Origin: Dudresnaya verticillata
Taxonomy: Eukaryota
DNA: 64,000 nt
Assembly: GCA_977862235.1 (NCBI GenBank)
Contig: OZ374559.1
Location: forward strand, 434,001 to 498,000
Direction: 5' to 3'
The notes beneath the pieces were generated by a model. The model saw only the letters and a program-made list of their open reading frames with translations, was not told the DNA's origin and searched no databases. Position numbers and translations under genes: made by a program. This document shows, in pieces, positions 21,445 through 59,539 of the stretch; the first letter of the stretch is position 1, and every line of letters starts with the position of its first letter.

Positions 21445-21492
21445 AGCGACGAGGCTCCATGCCTCAGACTCATCTCACTAAGCGTCAGGTGA

Positions 21493-26245: not shown

Positions 26246-26257
26246 GATTTTCTAAGT

Positions 26258-34892: not shown

Positions 34893-35742
34893 GGTACAGC
34901 GTGAGAAGGATCAAGAACAGGCAGGGCGAGCTCAGCCAGGAAGACCACTTTAAAAAAAAGCTAGTACCAATAACTGCTCTGAATGGACGGTCGCACGCCA
35001 CAAGTCTGACCTCCGTCGCCTTTCCTAAGTAGCATTGCACAACACATGGCTCATGTGATGCCACGAAAAGAATCCATCAGCCTCGGACGTAAATTGGACA
35101 CTGATGACATCAAATATCACCTCTTACATGAGTGTTTCGAACAAAAAATGGCTGGTTCGCAGACACATTACCTGTGCCTCAGACCGACACCGATGACCCC
35201 CTGAAGTTCTTCAGGAAGAACCGGACCAGTGAATCTTGATTTACAGCTGTTTATTTGTGGCGGCCTGTGCCGGTGACCTGCCTATTATTAGCTTAGCTGG
35301 CATAATTAACAAGCTTTTCTATGCTGAATGCTGGCGTAGGACCCAAAGCTCCTACAATCGCACCACTCGATTCACCCATGATTCATTCATGATTCATGGA
35401 TGAATCGACACACACGATTCATCCATGATTCATGGATGAATCGTGCGGTGCGGCCATGGACCATGATATCACTCTTGCATTAAAGCAACAACCGTCGCTA
35501 AGATTTTAGACACCTTTGATGAACGCGATACCGAAATGGCCAATGCGAAACTGCGATTTCAGCCGTCTTGTGGCGCTCCCACAAGTTTATGTCGCCGCAC
35601 CCACTTGACGAGTTAGCAGTGCTGACTCAATACAGGAATCTCTCTTGTTATTTACTAAAGTAAGGTCTGGATCGTGCGGGAATATTCTCGATCGACTTCC
35701 GAAGACAAGAAGGCCTCCGGCCTATTCTGTTGCTATTCCGAA

Positions 35743-36264
35743 CTAAACAATCAAAGACCCCGGCGCATGTGCTACAGATGCATATGCTCGGTAACTCATC
35801 CTTGAGAAGCGAGGCATACAGAACATGACTCTCGGCGCCGGGGGTGTCGGCTGTGCCACTTGGTTCAGCCCTCTCGTCGTGATATCTCGGATCTCACCAA
35901 TCAAGTCTTCAATTGGGGTATAGTATTGGTCATTCGGAACAACACGGAATAGACGAGGCTGACCTGCCGGTGCATCAATGGCAGTCTCTATCCTGTTCAC
36001 GAAACCATCCACGGCTCTGAGCTGATCCCCTGTTGCTGTTCTAGCTGCCACCAGATCGTACATGTAGCTTCGAATTGCCCGCAAGTCGTTATGGACTCCC
36101 AAAGACGGCGTGTTATCACGGATCAAAAAGCTCCGATGGTTCACCGTTAGCCTTGCGATTTCGATTCCAGTGGCTTGCCGCATATTGGGGCGTCGTGCAT
36201 TGGTACCCTTAGTTGCCATAAGCATTAAAGCAGCTAGAACAAGCCCATTAACAAATGTTTTCAT
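35743..36264 (-). CDS. Secreted 173-aa protein, family A, copy 1
   Basis: Signal-peptide-like MKTFVNGLVLAALMLMATKGTNA; TATAAAA on the minus strand at 36528-36534; ungapped paralog A' at 41999. Confidence 0.85.
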   Translation of the reverse strand: MKTFVNGLVLAALMLMATKGTNARRPNMRQATGIEIARLTVNHRSFLIRDNTPSLGVHNDLRAIRSYMYDLVAARTATGDQLRAVDGFVNRIETAIDAPAGQPRLFRVVPNDQYYTPIEDLIGEIRDITTRGLNQVAQPTPPAPRVMFCMPRFSRMSYRAYASVAHAPGSLIV

Positions 36265-38156
36265 TGTTCAGAATTTTGCGTTTTGTCCTCCGTTGCAATA
36301 GGCAATAATGACTAAGAGTATCAGACTTCTTGGTGGAGATCGAAGGAAAAGATCTTTTCTGACGGCGGATTCGTGTGGCGTCTTTAGGAAGGCCTCTATT
36401 TCTGGATCTTGGAGACCTGCAAAATGCGTATGTTGTCTCAGAACAAAAGCGGAACTAGGCGCAGGATGTGCAAGCCAAGAAGTATCTATTGTGATAGACA
36501 GGGAAGACTGGAAGAGCGACTTTGGTCTTTTATACCACACAGTCCGAAGAACTTGCATCGGATAATAGCGGTCTTCACCCCTTGTCAATAGCAAACAAGA
36601 CGCGATGAAGCCGTGTTGCTCTAGACTTGCAGGCAGCGCGTTCTCGCTTCTTCTTCTTAAAGGTTATTTTGACACACAACCAAAAATCGATGCCTGCCTC
36701 CCTTTTCCTGTGGTCCGGGTGGATTATTGGGCAGTATTCTTAGCTTCTCAAATTGAGCAAGCATCTTCCCTTTAGTTGAGAAAGAGCCTGAAACCTGTTG
36801 TGTCCTGTGAAGCTTTAGTATCATGTGGCGTTTTCAGGCGTACGAAAACCAGATGCCGCGTGATGTTAAACTGTACTCAACGTGATTTTGAGTTCGCTGG
36901 CTGCCGCCGTTTTGCGTGATGACGGCAACACCCGGCAGTGCCGCGCTGTGCAGCGGCTGGATTCGTTGATGACAGGCTGTATCACTACTGCAAATCTATG
37001 TTTGCTCCTCCATTCCCCCTTGAAACGTTGATGATGTCAACTCTGATCGGAGAGGAGAGGAGACACTCTGATCGGCGTGATAATTTCCCGCTCTGAAACG
37101 CTGCCAATGCAATTTTGACACGTCCGAAAATCTCTCATGCGACAAAATTTGTCATCAATAGACCAGACCAGAAGTAGACCACGTTTCTCGAGTAGCATGA
37201 TCGCAAGGTAAAGTTTATGACGTATCTTGGAAACCCATCTACGGAACTGTCACGAGGGCCTGCGAATCATCTCGTGTGAGAAGAGGCAGTCGCGAGGGGG
37301 CTTTTCAGAGCTATATTCAGAAAATGAATCCAGGGTGCATAATAATGTTATAGCAGAGTATTGTTACCCGCACATTGCAAGCGCGTGCGTTGGCAACAAT
37401 AAAAGCGCTTCTGATGACACCCAGCAGCTTAGTGTCTCAGTGTCAAAAGCAGCTTAAAAGCCCGCCCTCCGAGTTCTAAAATAGATCCGCCAAGGTTGTG
37501 CCAATAAAGCTGCACAAACTGATTCAGTTTCTGCACCCGCAGCGAGGTCCCAGAGAGAGGCTGCGGCCCGTAACAATGAGATTTTTCCAAGCCATAGGAA
37601 CAATGCAGGCCGCAATATGTGATAGTGCCAGTAGGTAGATCGAAGCGTCGGTCAAGCGTGGCACTTTCTTCCTGACCAGATAACGATGAAACATATAGGG
37701 GCGCTATCTTTTCGTACTCGTTGTGCCGAGGTTTTGAACTGGGTAGCGTTGTAACGTCAACGATGCGTTCCACTTCCTTCAGTGTGGCATTGCGAGTCCA
37801 TGCTCTCAATTGCACATTATTCACATAATTCAAAAGAAAGCGTTACAGTTACTGTAGCGCTAAGGTCTAGGCTTGTTGGACGATAGTCATCACTCCATTT
37901 TTAGATATTCATTCGTGAGCGCGACCTGCGTAGTAACCTGTTGGTCAGAATACCGACTGCTTCCTCTCGATCGCTATATAACGCTCTGCTTAGCACGAGC
38001 TTGCCAGCAATTTTCTTTCGACAGACATCTAGTAACGAAAACAGATTCCTACATCGTTTGGGAAACCTTGCCTCAACAGCATTCGACTACGACGCAAAGT
38101 CCTACTACAACGTTCTAAGAAAATTCATTCTCAAGCTCCTTCCACCTTCAAGAAAT

Positions 38157-38606
38157 ATGAATATTCTCTCCATCGCTGTGCTTCTCACTGTTCTGGGTTT
38201 TGTATCAGCTGCACAAGTTTCCCAAGGCCGTGAAGATTCGACTATGAGCTTTCTCCAGAACCCGGTGGAGCGTTGGAGTCCAGGGCGGTGCTTCGGATCT
38301 TCTTCACTTACCCGATGCTGTGAGCACGAAGCGTACTGGTGTGGTTACCACAAGCACACAGCCATATCGCATTGCAAGTATTGCATTAACAACTGTCTCT
38401 CAGTTCCAAACTCCGATAGAGTACATATTAGGCTGGGAAGCTTTTTCGAGACAAAGGCCACGCGCACAGCTACGCAATGGGCTCAGCTCTGTCGACACGT
38501 GGACAGCGAAAGGACTAACACCTGCCCGAGTCCGAAGTCATGTGCCCTAGACGCGTCTTGCAATCAGCATGCGCTCGCAACCCCGCTTCCTACTTGCAAG
38601 GATTAG
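38157..38606 (+). CDS. Secreted 149-aa Cys-rich protein (12 Cys), family B, copy 1
   Basis: ATG 38157, signal peptide MNILSIAVLLTVLGFVSA, TATATAA at 37975; synonymous-only differences from B' in the mature region. Confidence 0.88.
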   Translation: MNILSIAVLLTVLGFVSAAQVSQGREDSTMSFLQNPVERWSPGRCFGSSSLTRCCEHEAYWCGYHKHTAISHCKYCINNCLSVPNSDRVHIRLGSFFETKATRTATQWAQLCRHVDSERTNTCPSPKSCALDASCNQHALATPLPTCKD

Positions 38607-39892
38607 ATTTGAACAGATAGGGACACTACTGATAGCATCCACGAGCATTCCAATGCACAAGAGATGCATAAGTGCAGCTGGTTAGGTATTGGTATAGGAA
38701 GCATGAAGCATAATGGAATGGTGAAAGCTGCATTGAAACTGGTACGGAACGAATCACTCTGTTGGATTTCGACGGATGCTACCTGAGCAAAGTGTAAGAT
38801 TGCTCAGATATGTAGAATCTTTCAAACTTCTCTTCTTTTAAACAATAATCTGAACAGCACTTGTCTTTCTTTTCTCTACTACATCAGCATTTCCCGAAAA
38901 CTACGAGAACGGCTGCCAAGGCGGGAAAGGTTCTAAATGTCAGAATAAGATAGTTTATCCCGCTCCGTGCGCTGCTAGAACTTTGTCGGAAAACGCAAGG
39001 ATGGTGATGCGTTTGTTTTACGAGAGCTATCACATATGGTTTGGGAAGACCTGCCCGGCGGCAGGTGTTTTTCAGAAACGCACTGGGCGCCCGAGCTGGC
39101 GGCAGGAAACCGCCGAGATTACGTGCGCCCACCCCACAGTAGCTCGTCGGGCTGTCCCAGGAACAGCAGCTGGTTTCAGGGTGCGGATTAGTGCTGTGAA
39201 CATCGAACGTAGTAGTAGCATCCTCAACTAAAATAAAGCGGGAACTATGATTCACAAAATGTACTACAGAAAACGGGAGAGGTGGGAGGGATAACAAAAC
39301 AAGTATCGTGACACAGTGTGTGTGTTGAAGATTGAAAGCACAGCGTCCCCGCGAACAAGTTCTTCGACGAAGAGAGGGATATAGAACAGCCCTTCGTGTA
39401 GTTTTCGGACAATGCTGATGTAGTAGAAAAGAGGAGAGATGGAGACCGTTATGCATAGGAAATAATACAGCCCCGTAAGGGGGCTTACCTAAAACTCATC
39501 TGAAAGGCGATGGTCGAAGATTAAACGGCGGTTAACAGCCACCGCGACAGATTGAAGTACAAGATAGGTGAGGTGGGTGAGAATAGATAGTTTTTCAGAT
39601 ATCGGCGAAGTACCCTTCATAGTAGAAAAGAAAGACAAGTGCTGTTCAGATTATTGTTTAAAAGAAGAGAAGTTTGAAAGATTCTACATACCTGAGCAAT
39701 CTTACACTTTGCTCAGGTAGCATCCGTCGAAATCCAACAGAGTGATTCGTTCCGTACCAGTTTCAATGCAGCTTTCACGATTCCATTATGCTTCATGCTT
39801 TCTATACCAATACCTAACCAGCTGCACTTATGCATCTCTTGTGCATTGGAATGCTCTTGGATGCTATCAGTAGTGTCCCTATCTATTCAAAT

Positions 39893-40342
39893 CTAATCCT
39901 TGCAAGTAGGAAGCGGGGTTGCGAGCGCATGCTGATTGCAAGACGCGTCTAGAGCACATGACTTCGGACTCGGACAGGTGTTAGTCCTTTCGCTGTCCAC
40001 GTGTCGACAGAGCTGAGCCCATTGCGTAGCTGTGCGCGTGGCCTTTGTCTCGAAAAAGCTTCCCAGCCTAATATGCACTCTATCGGAGTTTGGAACAGAG
40101 AGACAGTTGTTAATGCAATACTTGCAATGCGATATGGCTGTGTGCTTGTGGTAACCACACCAGTACGCTTCGTGCTCACAGCATCGGGTAAGTGAAGACG
40201 ATCCGAAGCACCGCCCTGGACTCCAACGCTCCACCGGGTTCTGGAGAAAGCTCATAGTCGAGTCTTCACGGCCTTGGGAAACGTGTGCAGCTGATACAAA
40301 ACCCAGGGCAGTGAGAAGCATCGCGATACTGAGAAGAGTCAT
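39893..40342 (-). CDS. Secreted Cys-rich protein B', copy 1
   Basis: ATG 40342, signal peptide MTLLSIAMLLTALGFVSA; same protein as B from VSQGRED onward. Confidence 0.88.
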   Translation of the reverse strand: MTLLSIAMLLTALGFVSAAHVSQGREDSTMSFLQNPVERWSPGRCFGSSSLTRCCEHEAYWCGYHKHTAISHCKYCINNCLSVPNSDRVHIRLGSFFETKATRTATQWAQLCRHVDSERTNTCPSPKSCALDASCNQHALATPLPTCKD

Positions 40343-41998
40343 ATTTCTTGAATGTGGAAAGATAGTTGCTATGCTAGGCAGCGATTGCCCTTGTCGATAG
40401 ATATCTGTGGATGGAAATTCTGAAAGATTTGAGGCGTAAGAAGGTTCGTGCAATATTGGAAGGCCGTGGCGGTTGGTGGGTCGCCAGTACTTGATGAGTC
40501 GTATGTGAAAGACTTTTAAGTGCCCAGTACTTATCACAGGAGATTCTTATATTCTTTGCGAGATGAGGGGTTCAACTGTCTCGTCTGCTTCTACCTCTTC
40601 GGTAACGCGCAGTTGGTGTCAAAGTAACACATTCTGCCCAGAGTTGTTGACGATTCGTCGCGCAATATTCTTCACGCAACTGTAATGTTGCCTCCGGATC
40701 GATTGCAAACCCACGTGCTTTATACAATACTTCCTCTGCAACCTTAAGAAAGAGGATCACATGGATGATGACTATTAAGCTGGTAAGGAAATATTCTAAT
40801 AAGGAGTAAGATCGAAAATGGAGCTTTATCCCGGTTGCCATGCTCCGCTTTTAGCAACAAAGTGCTACGAGAGGTCAGCATGCCAAAATAGCTGCTGTCG
40901 CTCCGGACAGCTTGCAGTTATTTCAACACCGCAAGCACCCTACCCGGTACCTCGTTCCCCTTTTTACCAAGACATGTTCAATCATAGCCCCTACTCGTAG
41001 AGGACCAGAGTACAGTGTGCAGTGTGCGTGCTTTTCAGTACATATGGTGACTCAACAAATATGCCTAGGACTGTTACAAGGAGCATCGGCGCTGCTGCTC
41101 CCAAGTGTTGCAACTTGTTCCAAGAGCATACTCAACAATGAAAAGTGCTGATTCCCACTTGCATGACATGAACATAGCACCGGAGAAAGATGCTGTGAGA
41201 TGCTATTGAAAAGGCGTCAAGCCATTGAAAGTGTCTACAACGTGAAAATCACTTTTAAAAATAGACATTCATATGACGTCATAGTAGAATTAGAAGCACG
41301 TCTAAATTGGTTCGACGAGTCATATCTCCATGGATGCGAACAGAGAGCATGCTTTTAAGTTTTGCTCTTTTTGAAGCACCTTCCTCATTCTTTGATGGTT
41401 AGTTTGTATTCTTGACTTTGGTTGTACTCTCTCTCTTCATTGATGAAGCCAACAGAAAAATTCCGTACTACCTACTCACATCGCGAGAGCTGTAATAGCT
41501 TTGGGTCGCACCAAAAAGTAACCGTACCTTGTGCAAGAGAGTGTTGCACGGACCCGCGGTATTAGACTGAGATCGGTTGTCAAGGGCACGTCCTCCAGGT
41601 CTCAGCAATGATTTCCTAATCCGGCTTGTTGACGCCGCAGTTCTATTTTAGGCTTGCAGTGTCCGAAAACGATAGTGTGTGATCAGAATTGGATAGCAAA
41701 GCACTAGCTGCCGATGCGGCCATGCCAAGAGGCTCCACTCAGCAAGTGCTCAGTCGCAATGTAGATAACCATTTTCGATGGCAATCCTTGGAGTTAGTGT
41801 CTTCGAGGAGCTAGACTGCTGTTGCTTTGCGTTGGCAAAGCTAGCGAGTTCCGCTTTTCAACTCTATATAAGAATCAGGAAACCCACCACCTGTATCTGA
41901 ACCACCCATCAAGATAATTTGCATCTTCCTGTTCTATCCTTTCTTTTAACTTCTCTTCGCTCCTGTTCCCACTCATCGCACTTTGCTTATCCTAAGCC

Positions 41999-42520
41999 AT
42001 GAAGACAGTCGTTAACTCACTCTTCTTTTCCGCTCTGGTCATGACTATCGGGTTGGGGGTCAACGCGTTGCGCCCCGGAGCGCGACAAGCTACCGGGCAA
42101 GAAATTGCAAGAATCACTGCCAACCAACTCACCTATGTGATCCGTGATAACACGCCAGCCCTTGGTGTCCGTAACGACATGCGTTCTCTTCGCAACTTTG
42201 CATACGACAGGGTGGCCGCCAGAACGATCACAGCCGCCCAGCTAAATGATCTCAACACGTTTACGACTAGGGTCGAGGCAGCCCTCAACGCGCCGGCAGG
42301 CCAAACTCGTCTTTACAATGTTCCACATACAGATCCGCTTTCCCAAGAAATTGAAAACTTGATCGGAGAGATTCGCGCACAAATCATTAACGGAAGGGCC
42401 CAGCTGGCGCAGCCGACGCCATCAGTTCCAAGGGCAATGTTTTGCATTCCGCGTGGATCCCGAATGAGCACTGTGGGACATGTCTCTGACATGGGTGTGG
42501 AAGGGATAGCGTCTGCCTGA
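41999..42520 (+). CDS. Secreted 173-aa protein A', copy 1
   Basis: Signal-peptide-like MKTVVNSLFFSALVMTIGLGVNA; TATATAA at 41865; about half of residues identical to A by manual alignment. Confidence 0.85.
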   Translation: MKTVVNSLFFSALVMTIGLGVNALRPGARQATGQEIARITANQLTYVIRDNTPALGVRNDMRSLRNFAYDRVAARTITAAQLNDLNTFTTRVEAALNAPAGQTRLYNVPHTDPLSQEIENLIGEIRAQIINGRAQLAQPTPSVPRAMFCIPRGSRMSTVGHVSDMGVEGIASA

Positions 42521-43359
42521 TTCGGTGGAATGTCAAATGCACTGAGAAGTTGCTAAGACTACGTTGACAACAGCAGTTCGAAGCTAGAGTTCCTCATTCC
42601 CAGATAAGTCGCTTCTTCTAGTCGATATTAAGAGAGAGTATGACAACTATTCTGAGAAATTAATATCTGCTACTTGGTTTCAGTAAAGCAGAAATCAACG
42701 AAATATTAAACTTTTGCTCGCTGTACCAGTTCATGCAGGGGTAGGAGCGAGTTCGAACTGGAAACCCAACGCATTGACTCTTTCAAATATGCTAAGATTG
42801 GCGCCTAATGAACGTAGTCCCGGGCATCGCCGCCTTCCTGCTCGACATGTGCCCAAATTCTCCAAAGCTAGTCCCTTGTTTGTTGCTTCGCACAAACTCT
42901 CCCCTTTCATTATGGGGTTGTATAAAACCACAATCTGTCCCCTCCATCGGAATTCTACCCATGTACAAGAAATGCACTCACACAAGCGCACCACATGATT
43001 CATACTTGAATCATGGATGAATCCTGTGGTGCGGCCATGGACCATGATATCACTCTTGCATTAAAGCAACAATCATCGCTAAGGGTTTAAACGCCTTTGA
43101 TGAAGAGAGAGAGACATTTTTTGAAGAACACTTTGATGAACGCGAAGCCGAAATGGCCAATGGGAAACTACGATTTCAGCCGTCTTGTGGCGCTCCCACA
43201 AGTTTATGTCGCCGCACCCACTTGACGAGTTAGCAGTGCTGACTCAGTACAGGAATCTTTCTTGTTATTTACTAAAGTAAGGTCTGGATCGTGCGGGAAT
43301 ATTCTCGATCGACTTCCGAAGACAAGAAGACCTCCGGCCTATTCTGTTGCTATTCCGAA

Positions 43360-43881
43360 CTAAACAATCAAAGACCTCGGCGCATGTGCTACAGATGCAT
43401 ATGCTCGGTAACTCATCCTTGAGAAGCGAGGCATACAGAACATGACTCTCGGCGCCGGGGGTGTCGGCTGTGCCACTTGGTTCAGCCCTCTCGTCGTGAT
43501 ATCTCGGATCTCTCCAATCAAGTCTTCAATTGGGGTATAGTATTGGTCATTCGGAACAACACGGAATAGACGAGGCTGACCTGCCGGTGCATCAATGGCA
43601 GTCTCTATCCTGTTCACGAAACCATCCACGGCTCTGAGCTGATCTCCTGTTGCTGTTCTAGCTGCCACCAGATCGTACATGTAGCTTCGAATTGCCCGCA
43701 AGTCGTTATGGACTCCCAAAGACGGCGTGTTATCACGGATCAAAAAGCTCCGATGGTTCACCGTTAGCCTTGCGATTTCGATTCCAGTGGCTTGCCGCAT
43801 ATTGGGGCGTCGTGCATTGGTACCCTTAGTTGCCATAAGCATTAAAGCAGCTAGAACAAGCCCATTAACAAATGTTTTCAT
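43360..43881 (-). CDS. Secreted protein A, copy 2
   Basis: Same as copy 1 except G to R near the C-terminus. Confidence 0.85.
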   Translation of the reverse strand: MKTFVNGLVLAALMLMATKGTNARRPNMRQATGIEIARLTVNHRSFLIRDNTPSLGVHNDLRAIRSYMYDLVAARTATGDQLRAVDGFVNRIETAIDAPAGQPRLFRVVPNDQYYTPIEDLIGEIRDITTRGLNQVAQPTPPAPRVMFCMPRFSRMSYRAYASVAHAPRSLIV

Positions 43882-45738
43882 TGTTCAGAATTTTGCGTTT
43901 TGTCCTCCGTTGCAATAAGCAATAATGATGAAGAGTATCAGACTTCTTGGTGGAGATCGAAGGAAAGATCTTTTCCGACGGCGGATTCGTATGGCGTCTT
44001 TAGGAAGGCCTCTATTTCTGGATCTTGGAGACCTGCAAAAATTCGTAAGTTGTCTCAGAACAGAAGCTGGACTAGGCGCAGGATGTGCAAGCCAAGAAGT
44101 ATTTATTGTGATAGACAGGGAAGACTGGAAGAGCGACTTTGGTCTTTTATACCACACAGTCCGAAGAACTTGCATTGGATAATAGCGGTCTTCACCCCTT
44201 GTCAATAGCAAACAAGACGCGATGAAGCCGTGATGCTCTAGACTTGCAAGCGCATTCTCGCTGCTTCTTCGTAAAGGTTATTTTGACACACAACCAAAAA
44301 TCACTGCCTGCCCCCCTCTTCCTGCGGCCCGGGTGGATTATTGGGCAGTATTCTTAGCTGCTCAAATTGAGCAAGCATCTTCCCTTTAGTTGAGAAAGAG
44401 CCTGAAACCTGTTGTGTCCTGTGAAGCTTTAGTATCATGTGGCGTACGAAAACCAGATGCCGCGTGATGTTAAACTTTACTCAACGTGATTTTGAGTTCG
44501 CTGGCTTCCGCCGTTTTGCGTGATAACGGCAACACCCGGCAGTGCTGCGCTATACAGCGGCTGGCTTCGTTGATGACGCGATTCCTCAACCGATGGTGTG
44601 CATACATGTATACCATTTACTGGTGGTGTATCTCTACTGTAAAGCTATGTTTGCTCCTCCATTCCCCCTTAGTCTTGAAACGTTGGTGATGTCAACTCTG
44701 ATGGGCGTAAAGTGATGATTTCCCGCCCTGAAACGCTGCCGATGCATTTTTGACACGTCCGAAAATCTCTCATGCGACAAAATTTGTCATCAATAGACCA
44801 GACCAGAAGTAGACCACATTTCTCGAGTAGCATGATCGCAAGGTATGACGTATCTTGGAAACCCATCTACAGAACTGTCACGAGGGCCTGCGGATCATCT
44901 CGTGTGAGAAGAGGCAGCAGTCGCAAGGGGGCTTGCCAGAGCTATTTTGAGAACATGAATCCAGGGTGCATAATAATGTTATAGCAGAGTATTGTTACCC
45001 GTACATTGCAAGCGCGTGCCTTCGCAACAATAAAAAGCGCTTCTGATGACACTCAGCGGCTTAGTGTCTGAGTGTCAAAAGCAGCTTAAAAGCCCGCCCT
45101 CTGAGTTCTAAAACAGCTCCGCCAAGGTTGTGCCAATAAAGCTGCACAAACTGATACAGTTTCTGCACCCGCAGCGAGGTCCCAGAGAGAGGCTGCGCCC
45201 CGTAACAATGAGACGTGATGTTTTCCAAGTCATAGGAACAATGCAGGCCGCAATGTGTGACAGTGTCCGTAGGTAGATCGAAGCGTCGGATAAGCATGAT
45301 ACTTTCTTCCTGACCGGATAAGGATGAAACTATCGCAGACACATCTAGGGGCGCTATCTTGCAGTCCTCGTTGTGTCTAGTCTTGAAGTGTACAGCGTTG
45401 TACCGTCAACGATGCGTTCCTCTTCCTTCAATGTGGCAGCACAAAGGTCTAGGCTTGTTAGACGATAGTCATCACTCCATTTTTAGATATTCATTCGTGA
45501 GCGCGACCTGCGTAGTAACCTGTTGGTCAGAATACCGACTGCTTCCTCTCGATCGCTATATAACGCTCTGCTTAGCACGAGCTTGCCAGCAATTTTCTTT
45601 CGACAGACATCTAGTAACGAAAACAGATTCCTACATCGTTTGGGAAACCTTGCCTCAACAGCATTCGACTACGACGCAAAGTCCTACTACAACGTTCTAA
45701 GAAAATTCATTCTCAAGCTCCTTCCACCTTCAAGAAAT

Positions 45739-46188
45739 ATGAATATTCTCTCCATCGCTGTGCTTCTCACTGTTCTGGGTTTTGTATCAGCTGCACAAGT
45801 TTCCCAAGGCCGTGAAGATTCGACTATGAGCTTTCTCCAGAACCCGGTGGAGCGTTGGAGTCCAGGGCGGTGCTTCGGATCTTCTTCACTTACCCGATGC
45901 TGTGAGCACGAAGCGTACTGGTGTGGTTACCACAAGCACACAGCCATATCGCATTGCAAGTATTGCATTAACAACTGTCTCTCAGTTCCAAACTCCGATA
46001 GAGTACATATTAGGCTGGGAAGCTTTTTCGAGACAAAGGCCACGCGCACAGCTACGCAATGGGCTCAGCTCTGTCGACACGTGGACAGCGAAAGGACTAA
46101 CACCTGCCCGAGTCCGAAGTCATGTGCCCTAGACGCGTCTTGCAATCAGCATGCGCTCGCAACCCCGCTTCCTACTTGCAAGGATTAG
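45739..46188 (+). CDS. Secreted Cys-rich protein B, copy 2
   Basis: Same translation as copy 1, +7582. Confidence 0.88.
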   Translation: MNILSIAVLLTVLGFVSAAQVSQGREDSTMSFLQNPVERWSPGRCFGSSSLTRCCEHEAYWCGYHKHTAISHCKYCINNCLSVPNSDRVHIRLGSFFETKATRTATQWAQLCRHVDSERTNTCPSPKSCALDASCNQHALATPLPTCKD

Positions 46189-47924: not shown

Positions 47925-49580
47925 ATTTCTTGAATGTGGAAAGATAGTTGCTATGCTAGGCAGCGATTGCCCTTGTCGATAGATATCTGTGGATGGAAAT
48001 TCTGAAAGATTTGAGGCGTAAGAAGGTTCGTGCAATATTGGAAGGCCGTGGCGGTTGGTGGGTCGCCAGTACTTGATGAGTCGTATGTGAAAGACTTTTA
48101 AGTGCCCAGTACTTATCACAGGAGATTCTTATATTCTTTGCGAGATGAGGGGTTCAACTGTCTCGTCTGCTTCTACCTCTTCGGTAACGCGCAGTTGGTG
48201 TCAAAGTAACACATTCTGCCCAGAGTTGTTGACGATTCGTCGCGCAATATTCTTCACGCAACTGTAATGTTGCCTCCGGATCGATTGCAAACCCACGTGC
48301 TTTATACAATACTTCCTCTGCAACCTTAAGAAAGAGGATCACATGGATGATGACTATTAAGCTGGTAAGGAAATATTCTAATAAGGAGTAAGATCGAAAA
48401 TGGAGCTTTATCCCGGTTGCCATGCTCCGCTTTTAGCAACAAAGTGCTACGAGAGGTCAGCATGCCAAAATAGCTGCTGTCGCTCCGGACAGCTTGCAGT
48501 TATTTCAACACCGCAAGCACCCTACCCGGTACCTCGTTCCCCTTTTTACCAAGACATGTTCAATCATAGCCCCTACTCGTAGAGGACCAGAGTACAGTGT
48601 GCAGTGTGCGTGCTTTTCAGTACATATGGTGACTCAACAAATATGCCTAGGACTGTTACAAGGAGCATCGGCGCTGCTGCTCCCAAGTGTTGCAACTTGT
48701 TCCAAGAGCATACTCAACAATGAAAAGTGCTGATTCCCACTTGCATGACATGAACATAGCACCGGAGAAAGATGCTGTGAGATGCTATTGAAAAGGCGTC
48801 AAGCCATTGAAAGTGTCTACAACGTGAAAATCACTTTTAAAAATAGACATTCATATGACGTCATAGTAGAATTAGAAGCACGTCTAAATTGGTTCGACGA
48901 GTCATATCTCCATGGATGCGAACAGAGAGCATGCTTTTAAGTTTTGCTCTTTTTGAAGCACCTTCCTCATTCTTTGATGGTTAGTTTGTATTCTTGACTT
49001 TGGTTGTACTCTCTCTCTTCATTGATGAAGCCAACAGAAAAATTCCGTACTACCTACTCACATCGCGAGAGCTGTAATAGCTTTGGGTCGCACCAAAAAG
49101 TAACCGTACCTTGTGCAAGAGAGTGTTGCACGGACCCGCGGTATTAGACTGAGATCGGTTGTCAAGGGCACGTCCTCCAGGTCTCAGCAATGATTTCCTA
49201 ATCCGGCTTGTTGACGCCGCAGTTCTATTTTAGGCTTGCAGTGTCCGAAAACGATAGTGTGTGATCAGAATTGGATAGCAAAGCACTAGCTGCCGATGCG
49301 GCCATGCCAAGAGGCTCCACTCAGCAAGTGCTCAGTCGCAATGTAGATAACCATTTTCGATGGCAATCCTTGGAGTTAGTGTCTTCGAGGAGCTAGACTG
49401 CTGTTGCTTTGCGTTGGCAAAGCTAGCGAGTTCCGCTTTTCAACTCTATATAAGAATCAGGAAACCCACCACCTGTATCTGAACCACCCATCAAGATAAT
49501 TTGCATCTTCCTGTTCTATCCTTTCTTTTAACTTCTCTTCGCTCCTGTTCCCACTCATCGCACTTTGCTTATCCTAAGCC

Positions 49581-50102
49581 ATGAAGACAGTCGTTAACTC
49601 ACTCTTCTTTTCCGCTCTGGTCATGACTATCGGGTTGGGGGTCAACGCGTTGCGCCCCGGAGCGCGACAAGCTACCGGGCAAGAAATTGCAAGAATCACT
49701 GCCAACCAACTCACCTATGTGATCCGTGATAACACGCCAGCCCTTGGTGTCCGTAACGACATGCGTTCTCTTCGCAACTTTGCATACGACAGGGTGGCCG
49801 CCAGAACGATCACAGCCGCCCAGCTAAATGATCTCAACACGTTTACGACTAGGGTCGAGGCAGCCCTCAACGCGCCGGCAGGCCAAACTCGTCTTTACAA
49901 TGTTCCACATACAGATCCGCTTTCCCAAGAAATTGAAAACTTGATCGGAGAGATTCGCGCACAAATCATTAACGGAAGGGCCCAGCTGGCGCAGCCGACG
50001 CCATCAGTTCCAAGGGCAATGTTTTGCATTCCGCGTGGATCCCGAATGAGCACTGTGGGACATGTCTCTGACATGGGTGTGGAAGGGATAGCGTCTGCCT
50101 GA
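49581..50102 (+). CDS. Secreted protein A', copy 2
   Basis: Same translation as copy 1, +7582. Confidence 0.85.
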   Translation: MKTVVNSLFFSALVMTIGLGVNALRPGARQATGQEIARITANQLTYVIRDNTPALGVRNDMRSLRNFAYDRVAARTITAAQLNDLNTFTTRVEAALNAPAGQTRLYNVPHTDPLSQEIENLIGEIRAQIINGRAQLAQPTPSVPRAMFCIPRGSRMSTVGHVSDMGVEGIASA

Positions 50103-50941
50103 TTCGGTGGAATGTCAAATGCACTGAGAAGTTGCTAAGACTACGTTGACAACAGCAGTTCGAAGCTAGAGTTCCTCATTCCCAGATAAGTCGCTTCTTC
50201 TAGTCGATATTAAGAGAGAGTATGACAACTATTCTGAGAAATTAATATCTGCTACTTGGTTTCAGTAAAGCAGAAATCAACGAAATATTAAACTTTTGCT
50301 CGCTGTACCAGTTCATGCAGGGGTAGGAGCGAGTTCGAACTGGAAACCCAACGCATTGACTCTTTCAAATATGCTAAGATTGGCGCCTAATGAACGTAGT
50401 CCCGGGCATCGCCGCCTTCCTGCTCGACATGTGCCCAAATTCTCCAAAGCTAGTCCCTTGTTTGTTGCTTCGCACAAACTCTCCCCTTTCATTATGGGGT
50501 TGTATAAAACCACAATCTGTCCCCTCCATCGGAATTCTACCCATGTACAAGAAATGCACTCACACAAGCGCACCACATGATTCATACTTGAATCATGGAT
50601 GAATCCTGTGGTGCGGCCATGGACCATGATATCACTCTTGCATTAAAGCAACAATCATCGCTAAGGGTTTAAACGCCTTTGATGAAGAGAGAGAGACATT
50701 TTTTGAAGAACACTTTGATGAACGCGAAGCCGAAATGGCCAATGGGAAACTACGATTTCAGCCGTCTTGTGGCGCTCCCACAAGTTTATGTCGCCGCACC
50801 CACTTGACGAGTTAGCAGTGCTGACTCAGTACAGGAATCTTTCTTGTTATTTACTAAAGTAAGGTCTGGATCGTGCGGGAATATTCTCGATCGACTTCCG
50901 AAGACAAGAAGACCTCCGGCCTATTCTGTTGCTATTCCGAA

Positions 50942-51463
50942 CTAAACAATCAAAGACCTCGGCGCATGTGCTACAGATGCATATGCTCGGTAACTCATCC
51001 TTGAGAAGCGAGGCATACAGAACATGACTCTCGGCGCCGGGGGTGTCGGCTGTGCCACTTGGTTCAGCCCTCTCGTCGTGATATCTCGGATCTCTCCAAT
51101 CAAGTCTTCAATTGGGGTATAGTATTGGTCATTCGGAACAACACGGAATAGACGAGGCTGACCTGCCGGTGCATCAATGGCAGTCTCTATCCTGTTCACG
51201 AAACCATCCACGGCTCTGAGCTGATCTCCTGTTGCTGTTCTAGCTGCCACCAGATCGTACATGTAGCTTCGAATTGCCCGCAAGTCGTTATGGACTCCCA
51301 AAGACGGCGTGTTATCACGGATCAAAAAGCTCCGATGGTTCACCGTTAGCCTTGCGATTTCGATTCCAGTGGCTTGCCGCATATTGGGGCGTCGTGCATT
51401 GGTACCCTTAGTTGCCATAAGCATTAAAGCAGCTAGAACAAGCCCATTAACAAATGTTTTCAT
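50942..51463 (-). CDS. Secreted protein A, copy 3
   Basis: Same translation as copy 2, +7582. Confidence 0.85.
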   Translation of the reverse strand: MKTFVNGLVLAALMLMATKGTNARRPNMRQATGIEIARLTVNHRSFLIRDNTPSLGVHNDLRAIRSYMYDLVAARTATGDQLRAVDGFVNRIETAIDAPAGQPRLFRVVPNDQYYTPIEDLIGEIRDITTRGLNQVAQPTPPAPRVMFCMPRFSRMSYRAYASVAHAPRSLIV

Positions 51464-53320
51464 TGTTCAGAATTTTGCGTTTTGTCCTCCGTTGCAATAA
51501 GCAATAATGATGAAGAGTATCAGACTTCTTGGTGGAGATCGAAGGAAAGATCTTTTCCGACGGCGGATTCGTATGGCGTCTTTAGGAAGGCCTCTATTTC
51601 TGGATCTTGGAGACCTGCAAAAATTCGTAAGTTGTCTCAGAACAGAAGCTGGACTAGGCGCAGGATGTGCAAGCCAAGAAGTATTTATTGTGATAGACAG
51701 GGAAGACTGGAAGAGCGACTTTGGTCTTTTATACCACACAGTCCGAAGAACTTGCATTGGATAATAGCGGTCTTCACCCCTTGTCAATAGCAAACAAGAC
51801 GCGATGAAGCCGTGATGCTCTAGACTTGCAAGCGCATTCTCGCTGCTTCTTCGTAAAGGTTATTTTGACACACAACCAAAAATCACTGCCTGCCCCCCTC
51901 TTCCTGCGGCCCGGGTGGATTATTGGGCAGTATTCTTAGCTGCTCAAATTGAGCAAGCATCTTCCCTTTAGTTGAGAAAGAGCCTGAAACCTGTTGTGTC
52001 CTGTGAAGCTTTAGTATCATGTGGCGTACGAAAACCAGATGCCGCGTGATGTTAAACTTTACTCAACGTGATTTTGAGTTCGCTGGCTTCCGCCGTTTTG
52101 CGTGATAACGGCAACACCCGGCAGTGCTGCGCTATACAGCGGCTGGCTTCGTTGATGACGCGATTCCTCAACCGATGGTGTGCATACATGTATACCATTT
52201 ACTGGTGGTGTATCTCTACTGTAAAGCTATGTTTGCTCCTCCATTCCCCCTTAGTCTTGAAACGTTGGTGATGTCAACTCTGATGGGCGTAAAGTGATGA
52301 TTTCCCGCCCTGAAACGCTGCCGATGCATTTTTGACACGTCCGAAAATCTCTCATGCGACAAAATTTGTCATCAATAGACCAGACCAGAAGTAGACCACA
52401 TTTCTCGAGTAGCATGATCGCAAGGTATGACGTATCTTGGAAACCCATCTACAGAACTGTCACGAGGGCCTGCGGATCATCTCGTGTGAGAAGAGGCAGC
52501 AGTCGCAAGGGGGCTTGCCAGAGCTATTTTGAGAACATGAATCCAGGGTGCATAATAATGTTATAGCAGAGTATTGTTACCCGTACATTGCAAGCGCGTG
52601 CCTTCGCAACAATAAAAAGCGCTTCTGATGACACTCAGCGGCTTAGTGTCTGAGTGTCAAAAGCAGCTTAAAAGCCCGCCCTCTGAGTTCTAAAACAGCT
52701 CCGCCAAGGTTGTGCCAATAAAGCTGCACAAACTGATACAGTTTCTGCACCCGCAGCGAGGTCCCAGAGAGAGGCTGCGCCCCGTAACAATGAGACGTGA
52801 TGTTTTCCAAGTCATAGGAACAATGCAGGCCGCAATGTGTGACAGTGTCCGTAGGTAGATCGAAGCGTCGGATAAGCATGATACTTTCTTCCTGACCGGA
52901 TAAGGATGAAACTATCGCAGACACATCTAGGGGCGCTATCTTGCAGTCCTCGTTGTGTCTAGTCTTGAAGTGTACAGCGTTGTACCGTCAACGATGCGTT
53001 CCTCTTCCTTCAATGTGGCAGCACAAAGGTCTAGGCTTGTTAGACGATAGTCATCACTCCATTTTTAGATATTCATTCGTGAGCGCGACCTGCGTAGTAA
53101 CCTGTTGGTCAGAATACCGACTGCTTCCTCTCGATCGCTATATAACGCTCTGCTTAGCACGAGCTTGCCAGCAATTTTCTTTCGACAGACATCTAGTAAC
53201 GAAAACAGATTCCTACATCGTTTGGGAAACCTTGCCTCAACAGCATTCGACTACGACGCAAAGTCCTACTACAACGTTCTAAGAAAATTCATTCTCAAGC
53301 TCCTTCCACCTTCAAGAAAT

Positions 53321-53770
53321 ATGAATATTCTCTCCATCGCTGTGCTTCTCACTGTTCTGGGTTTTGTATCAGCTGCACAAGTTTCCCAAGGCCGTGAAGA
53401 TTCGACTATGAGCTTTCTCCAGAACCCGGTGGAGCGTTGGAGTCCAGGGCGGTGCTTCGGATCTTCTTCACTTACCCGATGCTGTGAGCACGAAGCGTAC
53501 TGGTGTGGTTACCACAAGCACACAGCCATATCGCATTGCAAGTATTGCATTAACAACTGTCTCTCAGTTCCAAACTCCGATAGAGTACATATTAGGCTGG
53601 GAAGCTTTTTCGAGACAAAGGCCACGCGCACAGCTACGCAATGGGCTCAGCTCTGTCGACACGTGGACAGCGAAAGGACTAACACCTGCCCGAGTCCGAA
53701 GTCATGTGCCCTAGACGCGTCTTGCAATCAGCATGCGCTCGCAACCCCGCTTCCTACTTGCAAGGATTAG
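53321..53770 (+). CDS. Secreted Cys-rich protein B, copy 3
   Basis: Same translation as copies 1 and 2. Confidence 0.88.
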   Translation: MNILSIAVLLTVLGFVSAAQVSQGREDSTMSFLQNPVERWSPGRCFGSSSLTRCCEHEAYWCGYHKHTAISHCKYCINNCLSVPNSDRVHIRLGSFFETKATRTATQWAQLCRHVDSERTNTCPSPKSCALDASCNQHALATPLPTCKD

Positions 53771-55056
53771 ATTTGAACAGATAGGGACACTACTGATAGC
53801 ATCCACGAGCATTCCAATGCACAAGAGATGCATAAGTGCAGCTGGTTAGGTATTGGTATAGGAAGCATGAAGCATAATGGAATGGTGAAAGCTGCATTGA
53901 AACTGGTACGGAACGAATCACTCTGTTGGATTTCGACGGATGCTACCTGAGCAAAGTGTAAGATTGCTCAGATATGTAGAATCTTTCAAACTTCTCTTCT
54001 TTTAAACAATAATCTGAACAGCACTTGTCTTTCTTTTCTCTACTACATCAGCATTTCCCGAAAACTACGAGAACGGCTGCCAAGGCGGGAAAGGTTCTAA
54101 ATGTCAGAATAAGATAGTTTATCCCGCTCCGTGCGCTGCTAGAACTTTGTCGGAAAACGCAAGGATGGTGATGCGTTTGTTTTACGAGAGCTATCACATA
54201 TGGTTTGGGAAGACCTGCCCGGCGGCAGGTGTTTTTCAGAAACGCACTGGGCGCCCGAGCTGGCGGCAGGAAACCGCCGAGATTACGTGCGCCCACCCCA
54301 CAGTAGCTCGTCGGGCTGTCCCAGGAACAGCAGCTGGTTTCAGGGTGCGGATTAGTGCTGTGAACATCGAACGTAGTAGTAGCATCCTCAACTAAAATAA
54401 AGCGGGAACTATGATTCACAAAATGTACTACAGAAAACGGGAGAGGTGGGAGGGATAACAAAACAAGTATCGTGACACAGTGTGTGTGTTGAAGATTGAA
54501 AGCACAGCGTCCCCGCGAACAAGTTCTTCGACGAAGAGAGGGATATAGAACAGCCCTTCGTGTAGTTTTCGGACAATGCTGATGTAGTAGAAAAGAGGAG
54601 AGATGGAGACCGTTATGCATAGGAAATAATACAGCCCCGTAAGGGGGCTTACCTAAAACTCATCTGAAAGGCGATGGTCGAAGATTAAACGGCGGTTAAC
54701 AGCCACCGCGACAGATTGAAGTACAAGATAGGTGAGGTGGGTGAGAATAGATAGTTTTTCAGATATCGGCGAAGTACCCTTCATAGTAGAAAAGAAAGAC
54801 AAGTGCTGTTCAGATTATTGTTTAAAAGAAGAGAAGTTTGAAAGATTCTACATACCTGAGCAATCTTACACTTTGCTCAGGTAGCATCCGTCGAAATCCA
54901 ACAGAGTGATTCGTTCCGTACCAGTTTCAATGCAGCTTTCACGATTCCATTATGCTTCATGCTTTCTATACCAATACCTAACCAGCTGCACTTATGCATC
55001 TCTTGTGCATTGGAATGCTCTTGGATGCTATCAGTAGTGTCCCTATCTATTCAAAT

Positions 55057-55506
55057 CTAATCCTTGCAAGTAGGAAGCGGGGTTGCGAGCGCATGCTGAT
55101 TGCAAGACGCGTCTAGAGCACATGACTTCGGACTCGGACAGGTGTTAGTCCTTTCGCTGTCCACGTGTCGACAGAGCTGAGCCCATTGCGTAGCTGTGCG
55201 CGTGGCCTTTGTCTCGAAAAAGCTTCCCAGCCTAATATGCACTCTATCGGAGTTTGGAACAGAGAGACAGTTGTTAATGCAATACTTGCAATGCGATATG
55301 GCTGTGTGCTTGTGGTAACCACACCAGTACGCTTCGTGCTCACAGCATCGGGTAAGTGAAGACGATCCGAAGCACCGCCCTGGACTCCAACGCTCCACCG
55401 GGTTCTGGAGAAAGCTCATAGTCGAGTCTTCACGGCCTTGGGAAACGTGTGCAGCTGATACAAAACCCAGGGCAGTGAGAAGCATCGCGATACTGAGAAG
55501 AGTCAT
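55057..55506 (-). CDS. Secreted Cys-rich protein B', copy 3
   Basis: Same translation as copies 1 and 2. Confidence 0.88.
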   Translation of the reverse strand: MTLLSIAMLLTALGFVSAAHVSQGREDSTMSFLQNPVERWSPGRCFGSSSLTRCCEHEAYWCGYHKHTAISHCKYCINNCLSVPNSDRVHIRLGSFFETKATRTATQWAQLCRHVDSERTNTCPSPKSCALDASCNQHALATPLPTCKD

Positions 55507-57163
55507 ATTTCTTGAATGTGGAAAGATAGTTGCTATGCTAGGCAGCGATTGCCCTTGTCGATAGATATCTGTGGATGGAAATTCTGAAAGATTTGAGGCG
55601 TAAGAAGGTTCGTGCAATATTGGAAGGCCGTGGCGGTTGGTGGGTCGCCAGTACTTGATGAGTCGTATGTGAAAGACTTTTAAGTGCCCAGTACTTATCA
55701 CAGGAGATTCTTATATTCTTTGCGAGATGAGGGGTTCAACTGTCTCGTCTGCTTCTACCTCTTCGGTAACGCGCAGTTGGTGTCAAAGTAACACATTCTG
55801 CCCAGAGTTGTTGACGATTCGTCGCGCAATATTCTTCACGCAACTGTAATGTTGCCTCCGGATCGATTGCAAACCCACGTGCTTTATACAATACTTCCTC
55901 TGCAACCTTAAGAAAGAGGATCACATGGATGATGACTATTAAGCTGGTAAGGAAATATTCTAATAAGGAGTAAGATCGAAAATGGAGCTTTATCCCGGTT
56001 GCCATGCTCCGCTTTTAGCAACAAAGTGCTACGCGAGGTCAGCATGCCGAAACAGCTGCTGTCGCTCCCGACAGCTTGCAGTTATATCAACACCGCAAGC
56101 ACCCTACCCGGTACCTCGTTCCCCTTTTTACCAAGACATGTTCAATCATAGCCCCTACTCGTAGAGGACCAGAGTACAGTGTGCAGTGTGCGTGCTTTTC
56201 AGTACATATGGTGACTCAACAAATATGCCTATTGACTGTTACAAGGAGCATCGGCGCTGCTGCTCCCAAGTGTTGCAACTTGTTCCAAGAGCATACTCAA
56301 CAATGAAAAGTGCTGATTCCCACTTGCATGACATGAACATAGCACCGGAGAAAGATGCTGTGAGATGCTATTGAAAAGGCGTCAAGCCATTGAAAGTGTC
56401 TACAACGTGAAAATCACTTTTAAAAATAGACATTCATATGACGTCATAGTAGAATTAGAAGCACGTCTAAATTGGTTCGACGAGTCATATCTCCATGGAT
56501 GCGAACAGAGAGCATGCTTTTAAGTTTTGCTCTTTTTGAAGCACCTTCCTCATTCTTTGATGGTTAGTTTGTATTCTTGACTTTGGTTGTACTCTCTCTC
56601 TTCATTGATGAAGCCAACAGAAAAATTCCGTACTACCTACTCACATCGCGAGAGCTGTAATAGCTTTGGGTCGCACCAAAAAGTAACCGTACCTTGTGCA
56701 AGAGAGTGTTGCACGGACCCGCGGTATTAGACTGAGATCGGTTGTCAAGGGCACGTCCTCCAGGTCTCAGCAATGATTTCCTAATCCGGCTTGTTGACGC
56801 CGCAGTTCTATTTTAGGCTTGCAGTGTCCGAAAACGATAGTGTGTGATCAGAATTGGATAGCAAAGCACTAGCTGCCGATGCGGCCATGCCAAGAGGCTC
56901 CACTCAGCAAGTGCTCAGTAGCAATGTAGATAACCATTTTCGATGGCAATCCTTGGAGTTAGTGTCTTCGAGGAGCTAGACTGCTGTTGCTTTGCGTTGG
57001 CAAAGCTAGCGAGTTCCGCTTTTCAACTCTATATAAGAATCAGGAAACCCACCACCTGTATCTGAACCACCCATCAAGATAATTTGCATCTTCCTGTTCT
57101 ATCCTTTCTTTTAACTTCTCTTCGCTCCTGTTCCCACTCATCGCACTTTGCTTATCCTAAGCC

Positions 57164-57685
57164 ATGAAGACAGTCGTTAACTCACTCTTCTTTTCCGCTC
57201 TGGTCATGACTATCGGGTTGGGGGTCAACGCGTTGCGCCCCGGAGCGCGACAAGCTACCGGGCAAGAAATTGCAAGAATCACTGCCAACCAACTCACCTA
57301 TGTGATCCGTGATAACACGCCAGCCCTTGGTGTCCGTAACGACATGCGTTCTCTTCGCAACTTTGCATACGACAGGGTGGCCGCCAGAACGATCACAGCC
57401 GCCCAGCTAAATGATCTCAACACGTTTACGACTAGGGTCGAGGCAGCCCTCAACGCGCCGGCAGGCCAAACTCGTCTTTACAATGTTCCACATACAGATC
57501 CGCTTTCCCAAGAAATTGAAAACTTGATCGGAGAGATTCGCGCACAAATCATTAACGGAAGGGCCCAGCTGGCGCAGCCGACGCCATCAGTTCCAAGGGC
57601 AATGTTTTGCATTCCGCGTGGATCCCGAATGAGCACTGTGGGACATGTCTCTGACATGGGTGTGGAAGGGATAGCGTCTGCCTGA
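57164..57685 (+). CDS. Secreted protein A', copy 3
   Basis: Same translation as copies 1 and 2, +7583. Confidence 0.85.
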   Translation: MKTVVNSLFFSALVMTIGLGVNALRPGARQATGQEIARITANQLTYVIRDNTPALGVRNDMRSLRNFAYDRVAARTITAAQLNDLNTFTTRVEAALNAPAGQTRLYNVPHTDPLSQEIENLIGEIRAQIINGRAQLAQPTPSVPRAMFCIPRGSRMSTVGHVSDMGVEGIASA

Positions 57686-59539
57686 TTCGGTGGAATGTCA
57701 AATGCACTGAGAAGTTGCTAAGACTACGTTGACAACAGCAGTTCGAAGCTAGAGTTCCTCATTCCCAGATAAGTCGCTTCTTTTAGTCGATACTAAGAGA
57801 GAGAATATAATACCACAGCGTCTTGTGCCTCGGTTGATCTTTGAAACTGTGCTTTTGACTCGAATCAGCGAGAAGCGAGCACTTTCGTCATTTAAATCGA
57901 TTCAAAACCTAAATCTTGCAACTCGCTCTGCACTAGCACTATTTTCATGCCAATGACCACGTCCGCAAGCAGATCAATTAACTGACATTTCGGTGTCACC
58001 TCGGCACATTCCCGATACCCCCAAATGCCCATCCAAGCGCGCTGCCCTCCGCCAACCCACTGCTACTCTACACAAGGTCGCGATACGCGAACCCACCCCT
58101 CAAGAGGTCCAAGAAATAACGGAAGCCATCTACCTGATCCGAGCGGTCTGCCAAGAATAATTCCCTCTTCCCCTCCCGCACAAGCACTCGACATTGCCTC
58201 AATAGACTACAGCCTGAAAGTGCGCCTACAAACGGGCCATTTCCGCCCGCGCAGGACCACTCGAAACAAAACATCAATAGATCAAACTTCAGATCATCCT
58301 TCAATTTTTTCCTGTCATCACACACCTTTACTATACCATGAGGGGCATGTTCTATTCTTTCCGTGTCAAGCCTTAGAGTTTGGCATTGATGAAGACATGC
58401 AATGCAAAACTATGTTTAACGCAGCGTTGATCATCGACGTAGAAGATTCACTGCACTGTTTATTTACCTGCATAGTAAGCATATAAGTAGTTATGGAACA
58501 TGTAGATTCCGTAAGAAATTGGACACTGAAACACCTCATTATCTAGCAGTATCCAAATTTCTGTTGATGATCGTCTTTACAACAAATTGATTATCCATTA
58601 ATGATGGAGACATTTATGCATAGGAACGTACAACAAGAACAACCTCCCTTGTCGCAAAAGAAATAAATCCCACGTTTCCATCGCAGACTGCAACCTTCAA
58701 TTATCGACAAAACCGTCGATCTTCCTTACAAAGTCCTGTGAATATCCTGCGCCAGCCTTGTTTTTGCATGCAATAGTTAAACGTACCGCAAACATATTTC
58801 TATGCCTTCTCCTTGACAAACAACACTAGCAAATTGTTGTGCACTTCCCAAACAATCCTGGATTAATAAGCCGATATTTCATGTTATTCCTAGCCACTTC
58901 CAATATTATGACACGCATTCTTCTATAAACACAGCCGAAAATAAGACTTTCCTCCATTATCTAGACAGTTTGTGACCGAGATGAACTCTAGCGATGTCGT
59001 TCAACTTGGGTAGGTATAGAGGACTTCCGAGTGAAGTCAATCTGGCCCAGCCTTGGCCGGAGATTATAAATGGGTGGTCAAGATAGAGTAGCATGCAGTG
59101 TCAATTGTCACTGAATATTGTCAGTAGTTGCATTCAATTCCACGTTCGCGTGGAGGATGAAACTCAGTACAAGAACTATTCCGACGTCAGCAACAAAGTA
59201 AAGAAAAGCCAACGATTACAAAACAGAACAACAACCAACCAATCTAGGGAACTAGTCTAGCACACGCTACAGACCGGAGACGGTGCAACGCTTTGCGTTT
59301 GCAACTAATGGAAGACAAGTTCAAAGAACCACGGAACACTCAACTAGTGTCTACGTTTGAATCAACCTCCGCTACCATTGGAATCAATTGCTCCGCCCTC
59401 AGTCAGCTCTTTTGAGAGCCGTTCCGAGCGTGCAGCTCTTACACTCGTGCTAACCGAAGCAGCCCTTTTGAGGGCCGTTCATCGACGAACACGTGTGGAT
59501 CCTAACGGCTACAGTGCCGTAAAGGTCTGTATTTTGACA

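Follow-up and report, generated by a model that had tools for sequence, protein, structure and literature searches.

A tandem array of small genes was analysed in a 64,000-nucleotide stretch of the genome of the red seaweed Dudresnaya verticillata (assembly GCA_977862235.1, contig OZ374559.1, positions 434,001 to 498,000 of the forward strand; hereafter the window, with positions counted from its first letter). Self-comparison of the window gave a period of 7582 bp and three units of 7.58 kb, each holding four genes in the mirrored order A<- ->B B'<- ->A', and the genes of unit 1 recur at about +7582 and +15164 (Table 1). All twelve are single-exon open reading frames (ORFs) of full length with one terminal stop apiece; order, strands, number and intactness of the genes are as described in an earlier reading of this DNA made from its letters alone (the sequence-only reading). 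The array had there been drawn as a threefold repeat at 35430..57803; the mirror quartet is present in each unit, but the units are unequal and the repeat borders fall at 35411-57806. B, B' and A' are identical base for base across the three units, and the A gene of unit 1 differs from the other A copies by 3 bases. A and B, like A' and B', stand head to head, with 1656-1892 bp between their start codons.

Table 1. Features of the array and its neighbourhood, in window positions
Feature	Position	Strand	Remarks
Unit 1	35411-42641		left 2.47 kb (35411-37878) diverged by about 4.6% plus indels from both other units; remainder the same as in unit 2
Gene A, unit 1	35743-36264	-	173 amino acids (aa); 3 bases and 1 residue different from other A copies
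Left palindrome arm	38137-38875	+	20 bp upstream of B, B, and 269 bp downstream
Gene B, unit 1	38157-38606	+	149 aa, 12 Cys, signal-peptide-like start
Inner left-arm continuation	38869-38915	+	47 bp, 85% identical to 39387-39433 on the opposite strand
Central spacer	38916-39386		471 bp; symmetry centre 39151
Insertion of about 199 bp, right arm	39421-39631		12-bp direct repeat on either side, at 39421 and 39620
Right palindrome arm	39624-40362	-	contains B'
Gene B', unit 1	39893-40342	-	149 aa; 5 residues different from B
Gene A', unit 1	41999-42520	+	173 aa, 53% identical to A
Inter-unit junction, 350 bp	42642-42991 and 50224-50573		both copies identical
Unit 2	42992-50223		left and middle identical to unit 3; middle and right identical to unit 1
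Gene A, unit 2	43360-43881	-	
Gene B, unit 2	45739-46188	+	
Gene B', unit 2	47475-47924	-	
Gene A', unit 2	49581-50102	+	
Unit 3	50574-57806		10 mismatches and 1 gap from unit 2, in the right 1.77 kb only, non-coding
Gene A, unit 3	50942-51463	-	
Gene B, unit 3	53321-53770	+	
Gene B', unit 3	55057-55506	-	
Gene A', unit 3	57164-57685	+	
Copia-like retroelement, broken	19137-27905		long terminal repeat (LTR)-like repeats at 19137-19481 and 27573-27905, 83% identical
Single-exon fusion gene	15684-18707	-	1007 aa; heme-oxygenase-like iron enzyme, S-adenosylmethionine (SAM) methyltransferase, TauD-type dioxygenase
Cys-rich ORF	61268-61681	-	137 aa, signal-like start, TATA at -115, 16 Cys, acidic middle

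The two families are unrelated to each other, as the sequence-only reading had held: the local alignment score of A with B is 27, and 500 shuffles give 24.4 ± 3.7 (P 0.26 and 0.44). Four of the five residues that distinguish B from B' lie within the first 12, in the signal-like part, leaving one difference among the 131 residues of the mature part. Over the 157 ungapped codons (1-157) shared by A and A', differences at the first, second and third codon positions number 48, 47 and 98, with proportions of synonymous and non-synonymous differences (pS and pN) of 0.76 and 0.29 (Fisher p 4e-19). For the mature A and A' proteins, the ratio of non-synonymous to synonymous substitution rates (dN/dS) is 0.14 at a dS of about 2.5, synonymous sites being saturated, and when the pair is read one or two bases out of frame the pattern disappears and 12-13 stops appear. 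The mature parts of B and B' carry seven nucleotide differences, all at third positions, six synonymous and one non-synonymous (dN/dS 0.05, p 8e-4). Between units 1 and 2 the A coding sequence has diverged by 0.6% and the DNA flanking it by 3.6-6.5% (p 2e-8), the low coding divergence reflecting selection or conversion; the dN/dS of the three coding changes by themselves is not significant (p 0.17). These substitution patterns mark both A and B as genuine genes maintained by purifying selection.

A TATA(A/T)A element is found at -270 (A), -182 (B) and -134 (A') relative to the ATG, whereas the closest one to B' is at -382; the chance probability of one such element within 220 bp is 0.07. TATA boxes had been attributed to A, B and A' from the letters alone, with the implication that B' lacks a near one, and this description holds. 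N-terminal hydropathy peaks reach 2.15-2.99 in A, A' and B, with none above 1.0 elsewhere, and no hydrophobic segment follows residue 30 in these proteins. Of the signal-peptide-like starts that had been ascribed to all four genes, those of A, A' and B, the proteins covered by the hydropathy analysis, are supported by it, and A and B are predicted to be secreted. The mature isoelectric points are 10.5 (A), 10.2 (A') and 8.3 (B), and no N-glycosylation site occurs in A, A' or B. A and A' retain one Cys in a common C-terminal FC motif, and B, with its 12 Cys, is predicted to be a disulfide-rich protein.

Searches of sequence libraries returned no accepted relative of either family, in keeping with the statement of the sequence-only reading that neither was recognisable to it. 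For A, no relative was found in 5.8 billion clusters (near lengths only), no match in Pfam, NCBIfam, PHROGs or PDB sequences, and no relative in metagenome, viral and prokaryote contigs; a search of the ESM Atlas by features found none for A'. A profile search with A over 1.84 billion representatives yielded two matches, long repetitive proteins aligned over 27-33 positions, which were set aside as artefacts. B had no relative in the same libraries excluding the 1.84 billion representatives and the prokaryote contigs, and, considered as a possible defensin-like or other known Cys-rich secreted protein, it had no Pfam or NCBIfam match; 22 PDB rows with E of 0.25-1.6 were discarded. Longer or shorter forms of A and B were outside the search, and because the libraries are poor in eukaryotic algae, the absence of relatives is weak evidence. 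None of 10 window proteins matched a protein collection in an exact look-up, Rfam gave no match over 34000-43100, and Pfam gave none for 64 further stop-to-stop frames, which were drawn from 99, the others overlapping known ORFs or GC-rich low-complexity stretches. No such locus is described in the literature found; unnamed families are unsearchable by text, and supplements of algal genome papers could list the proteins.

The best AlphaFold model of A has a mean predicted local distance difference test score (pLDDT) of 71.9, with about 77-94 over residues 31-140, and comprises a β-hairpin (35-49) and helices 54-73, 79-96 and 115-137. A fold search with this model gave no match at E <= 0.001 in the PDB and viral libraries. 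Its best VIA match is a BAG domain (Z 8.6, root mean square deviation 3.0, 80 aligned), which is under the tool's threshold for bundles and tied with many unrelated helical bundles. A is thus predicted, from this model, to adopt a generic fold of a β-hairpin plus a three-helix bundle. Of the homology and fold comparisons that the sequence-only reading had proposed as a check, the former yielded no relative, and the latter returned common three-helix bundles for A and lacked a usable model for B.

An alternative is that these ORFs are chance frames, or are carried by a mobile or viral element that has been repeated. The failure to find any relative and the copia-like element at 19.1-27.9 kb could be cited for it. 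The codon-position pattern already contradicts this explanation, and the purifying selection is frame-specific in both families, whose genes have TATA boxes and signal-like starts; around the unit there are no terminal repeats and no transposase, and no PHROG or viral-contig match was obtained. We regard it as very improbable.

In the centre of each unit, paralogs are arranged in mirror order around a short spacer, and B and B' lie on the arms of a palindrome. The arms are 97% identical (23 mismatches in 739 positions), with the mismatches spread unevenly: 11 fall in the outer 56 bp and 12 in the remaining 683 (p 1e-7), so that identity is 98.2% in the core, 80% at the outer end and 85% at the inner end. 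The outer 56 bp include a Ser codon altered at all three positions. The insertion in the right arm separates an inner arm piece from the main arm, and the stem resumes once it is looped out; this inner piece has 7 mismatches in 47 positions against the same 12 in 683 (p 8e-5). Self-complementarity of the central spacer is not above that of shuffles. As a clean young duplication would diverge evenly, the uneven divergence makes arm-to-arm conversion likely, with conversion tracts whose likely limits, by the distribution of mismatches, are the insertion on one side and the neighbourhood of the start codon on the other. Uneven arm identity is restricted to the inner arms and is not seen for A and A' or for intergenic DNA. 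On this reading, the locus is a compact palindrome whose conversion would extend over no more than the inner 0.74 kb and halt at an insertion.

Comparison of the three units indicates how the array grew. In the left 2.47 kb, units 1 and 2 differ by 107 mismatches and 231 gap columns and units 2 and 3 not at all; the middle 2.99 kb is free of differences in both comparisons; and in the right 1.77 kb, units 1 and 2 are identical, with 10 mismatches and 1 gap separating units 2 and 3. No difference is private to unit 2, and at an offset of 7582 identity extends over 10,573 bp (95% upper bound of divergence 2.8e-4). The lack of any private base, together with the matching on the left and on the right, makes unit 2 a mosaic composed entirely of unit 1 and unit 3 sequence. 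The block would first have been duplicated in tandem, its outer part still showing about 5% divergence; a very recent unequal crossover of the two older units would then have produced the middle one. The 350-bp junction sequence has no match in either outer flank of the array and, being missing from both outer ends, is not explained by plain tandem duplication. A mosaic free of private bases, with 10,573 identical bp and two identical junctions, could also be the product of a mis-join during assembly, the genome holding two units; this would affect only the copy number. Units 1 and 3 are distinct, which makes at least two units real, and unequal crossover produces exactly such a mosaic. We consider an assembly artefact unlikely, if still a serious contender.

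The origin of the mirror is less straightforward, since its halves differ in apparent age: A and A' are saturated at synonymous sites, and the B and B' arms are 97% identical. The likeness of B and B', the saturation of A and A' and the missing intergenic homology together mean that either the inner arms were converted or B was duplicated separately later. Measured from the centre of the B palindrome, the distances to the start codons of A and A' are 2852 and 2848 bp in unit 2 and 2887 and 2848 bp in unit 1; this near-symmetry speaks for a single old inversion rather than two events. The mirror would then go back to one ancient inverted duplication of an A-B pair standing head to head, and arm-to-arm conversion would afterwards have kept the inner B copies similar while the outer A copies diverged. 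The competing explanation invokes two events, an old head-to-head duplication of A and A' followed by a later local inverted duplication of B, with the mirror partly a coincidence; the B copy would have taken just 20 bp of upstream DNA, and no A-B module would ever have been inverted. It would account for the want of intergenic homology between the halves, for the end of B/B' homology 20 bp upstream of the ATG, for the absence of a near canonical TATA box at B', and for B-arm ends that are 15-25% diverged next to saturated A and A'. Yet it needs two inversions that are almost co-centred (A and A' starts within 4-39 bp of symmetry), which by a rough post-hoc estimate would happen by chance in a few percent of cases, and the uneven arm divergence shows that conversion acted regardless, so that B/B' identity is no clock. 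From these sequence comparisons we would put the odds of a single inversion, relative to a later separate duplication of B, at about two to one, and we judge the two-event history itself to be rather unlikely. The succession put forward in the sequence-only reading, an old inversion followed by recent tandem amplification, fits the data only with an added conversion step or a separate later duplication of B.

Taken as a whole, we slightly favour the view that a lineage-restricted gene pair underwent an old inversion, conversion of B, tandem duplication and crossover, and that its products have an extracellular role. Several observations weigh against this composite history. The A-B and A'-B' intergenic regions show no homology above shuffles (z 0.5 and 0.9), and the flanks of A and A' likewise align no better than shuffles (z -0.4 to 0.9 for flanks and intergenic regions together); with this homology gone, a single inversion is not directly shown. 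The near-exact symmetry is partly due to indels that cancel, and the least converted pieces of B are 15-25% diverged, far below A and A' (dS about 2.5 or saturated), a low divergence for which a more recent, separate duplication of B is an equally good explanation. As to the proteins, the predicted secretion of A and B has hydropathy as its sole basis, a defensive function is deduced indirectly, the other four of the five AlphaFold models of A stand at pLDDT 42-43, and B did not fold (pLDDT 37).

A and B would work extracellularly, singly or side by side, in defence or in interactions at the surface. Such a role, which we put forward tentatively, is suggested by proteins that are small and basic, one of them disulfide-rich, and that are encoded near another secreted-type Cys-rich gene. 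A more specific proposal is that A and B are obligate partners in a secreted toxin, defence, adhesion or recognition system, with a shared divergent promoter and a copy number selected for dose. All four genes are maintained by purifying selection, the single conserved Cys of A and A' is available for an inter-chain bond, and the head-to-head layout resembles Fusarium Avr2-SIX5 and SIX8-PSL1 in the available part of PMC10942635. Against a partnership, the Cys count of B is even (12), low dN/dS values give no sign of positive selection, and the adjoining palindrome has a lone secreted-type gene without a partner. Divergence is also unmatched, A and A' differing at 47% of residues and mature B and B' at one of 131; had there been two cognate A-B pairs, both partners should have changed in step. 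The sequence-only reading had taken the pairing kept through both events as a sign of partners under dosage selection; the argument is a weak one, as any block duplication keeps inner pairs together, and the third copy, without a private change, is too young to show selection. Obligate partnership accordingly appears doubtful to us. A bolder idea, to which we give marginally less credence, is that a constant disulfide-rich B, homogenised across its palindrome, is the common partner of the helical subunits A and A', which diverged long ago, and that the locus encodes an undescribed two-component secreted defence or recognition system whose copy number shifts by unequal crossover.

Membership of a known effector class was also considered. 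An RXLR(-EER) motif after the signal peptide is the conserved motif of oomycete RXLR effectors. RSLR occurs at 62-65 in A' only, A having RAIR, in a predicted helix, and no acidic motif follows either, so this assignment was rejected. What distinguishes the locus is two families without a relative in the searched libraries that are under selection and amplified. Secreted proteins of defence or surface recognition in red seaweeds are little described in the literature found, and the four genes with their Cys/Tyr-rich neighbour are candidates for such functions; the locus would matter much more if the partnership of A and B were true.

Similar gene arrangements are known from other organisms. 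The hsp-16 pair of Caenorhabditis consists of two heat-shock paralogs, and here the pair is made of two unrelated orphan, likely secreted proteins. In the part of PMC1803023 available, hsp-16 forms a four-gene palindrome in which a divergent pair is mirrored, with the inner genes convergent about a short spacer, as in the present array, and the identity of its arms is ascribed to gene conversion. The same portion of that paper records palindromes partly decayed in some lineages, an arm disrupted by insertion, and inverted pairs duplicated in tandem. In C. elegans the arms are nearly identical over their whole length, whereas only the inner 0.74 kb appears homogenised here (PMC1803023, same part). 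Sex-chromosome palindromes, as far as the sources at hand go, share with our locus inverted arms with a spacer and conversion that keeps the arms alike, but have arms of >10 kb that are >99% identical, and nothing here indicates a sex chromosome.

With respect to gene pairing, the accessible part of PMC10942635 presents Avr2-SIX5 and SIX8-PSE1/PSL1 of Fusarium oxysporum as divergent effector pairs with shared promoters that are co-regulated and bind each other. Like A and B, these are small secreted proteins of two families, head to head and about 2 kb apart; the start codons of SIX7 and SIX12 are separated by 2319 bp (PMC10942635, same part). One Fusarium partner is ToxA-like according to the same text, whereas A models as a hairpin plus three helices with generic matches; binding is shown there, whereas A and B are known from genes alone, set in a palindrome and a tandem array. 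The allorecognition genes tgrB1-tgrC1 of Dictyostelium, in what is available of PMC13648343, also stand head to head and form clusters in which each pair was duplicated together, and Tgr proteins differ in being large, transmembrane, built of Ig/IPT repeats and highly polymorphic. A and B were not assigned to the tgrB/tgrC type, being proteins of 149-173 aa with no Pfam match and no later hydrophobic segment, under purifying selection. Only orientation is thus shared with the Fusarium and Dictyostelium pairs. The secretome of Asparagopsis, as covered in the part of PMC12115072 at hand, has expanded secreted vWA proteins and not the A and B families. The architecture of the locus is of a known kind; the two orphan protein families are new.

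Next to the array lies a second, decayed palindrome (58271-62550), whose arms are 66-71% identical, upstream DNA included; in its centre, at about 60200-60500, is a hairpin (score 139 versus 20 in shuffles). Its right arm carries the intact 137-aa ORF and its left arm a broken copy at about 59250-59690. This second palindrome implies that the region produces whole-block inversions. A motif of 20-26 bp occurs at 39438, early in the insertion of the B' arm, and at 58603 and 62076, in the two arms of the second palindrome. The last 33 residues of the 137-aa ORF are rich in Cys, Tyr, Trp and Arg, a layout that we take to resemble an antimicrobial-peptide precursor. The ORF has no Pfam match, and weak NCBIfam, PHROG and PDB rows were deemed spurious. 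A frame at 9929-10030 (minus strand) ends in a Tyr/Cys-rich run like this tail, with no clear start or signal peptide, and is possibly a remnant.

Elsewhere in the window, the 1007-aa fusion has seven relatives at E <= 1e-20 (30-46% identical, the best of them 36-46%); its make-up suggests an enzyme that tailors a small molecule in several steps, and its origin may be bacterial. The copia-like element contains gag-like, protease, integrase and reverse transcriptase pieces, into which other sequence intrudes at about 24.1-25.9 kb. Two orphan ORFs, at 7384-8088 and 11595-12035 (both minus strand), have a common C-terminal region of 64 aa with 42% identity, and the former contains short tandem repeats rich in R, E, D and N. 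Dispersed repeats of about 70 bp occur at 8517, 10660, 15072 and 58218, and a DUF1349 gene lies at 13286-13960 (minus strand). The genes of the window are compact and mostly single-exon, a style reminiscent of florideophyte red algae. The sole sign of splicing seen is in the gene at 50-1186 (plus strand), which has a GC-rich start encoding an Ala/Pro-rich sequence and, near 1157-1272, a likely GT-AG intron.

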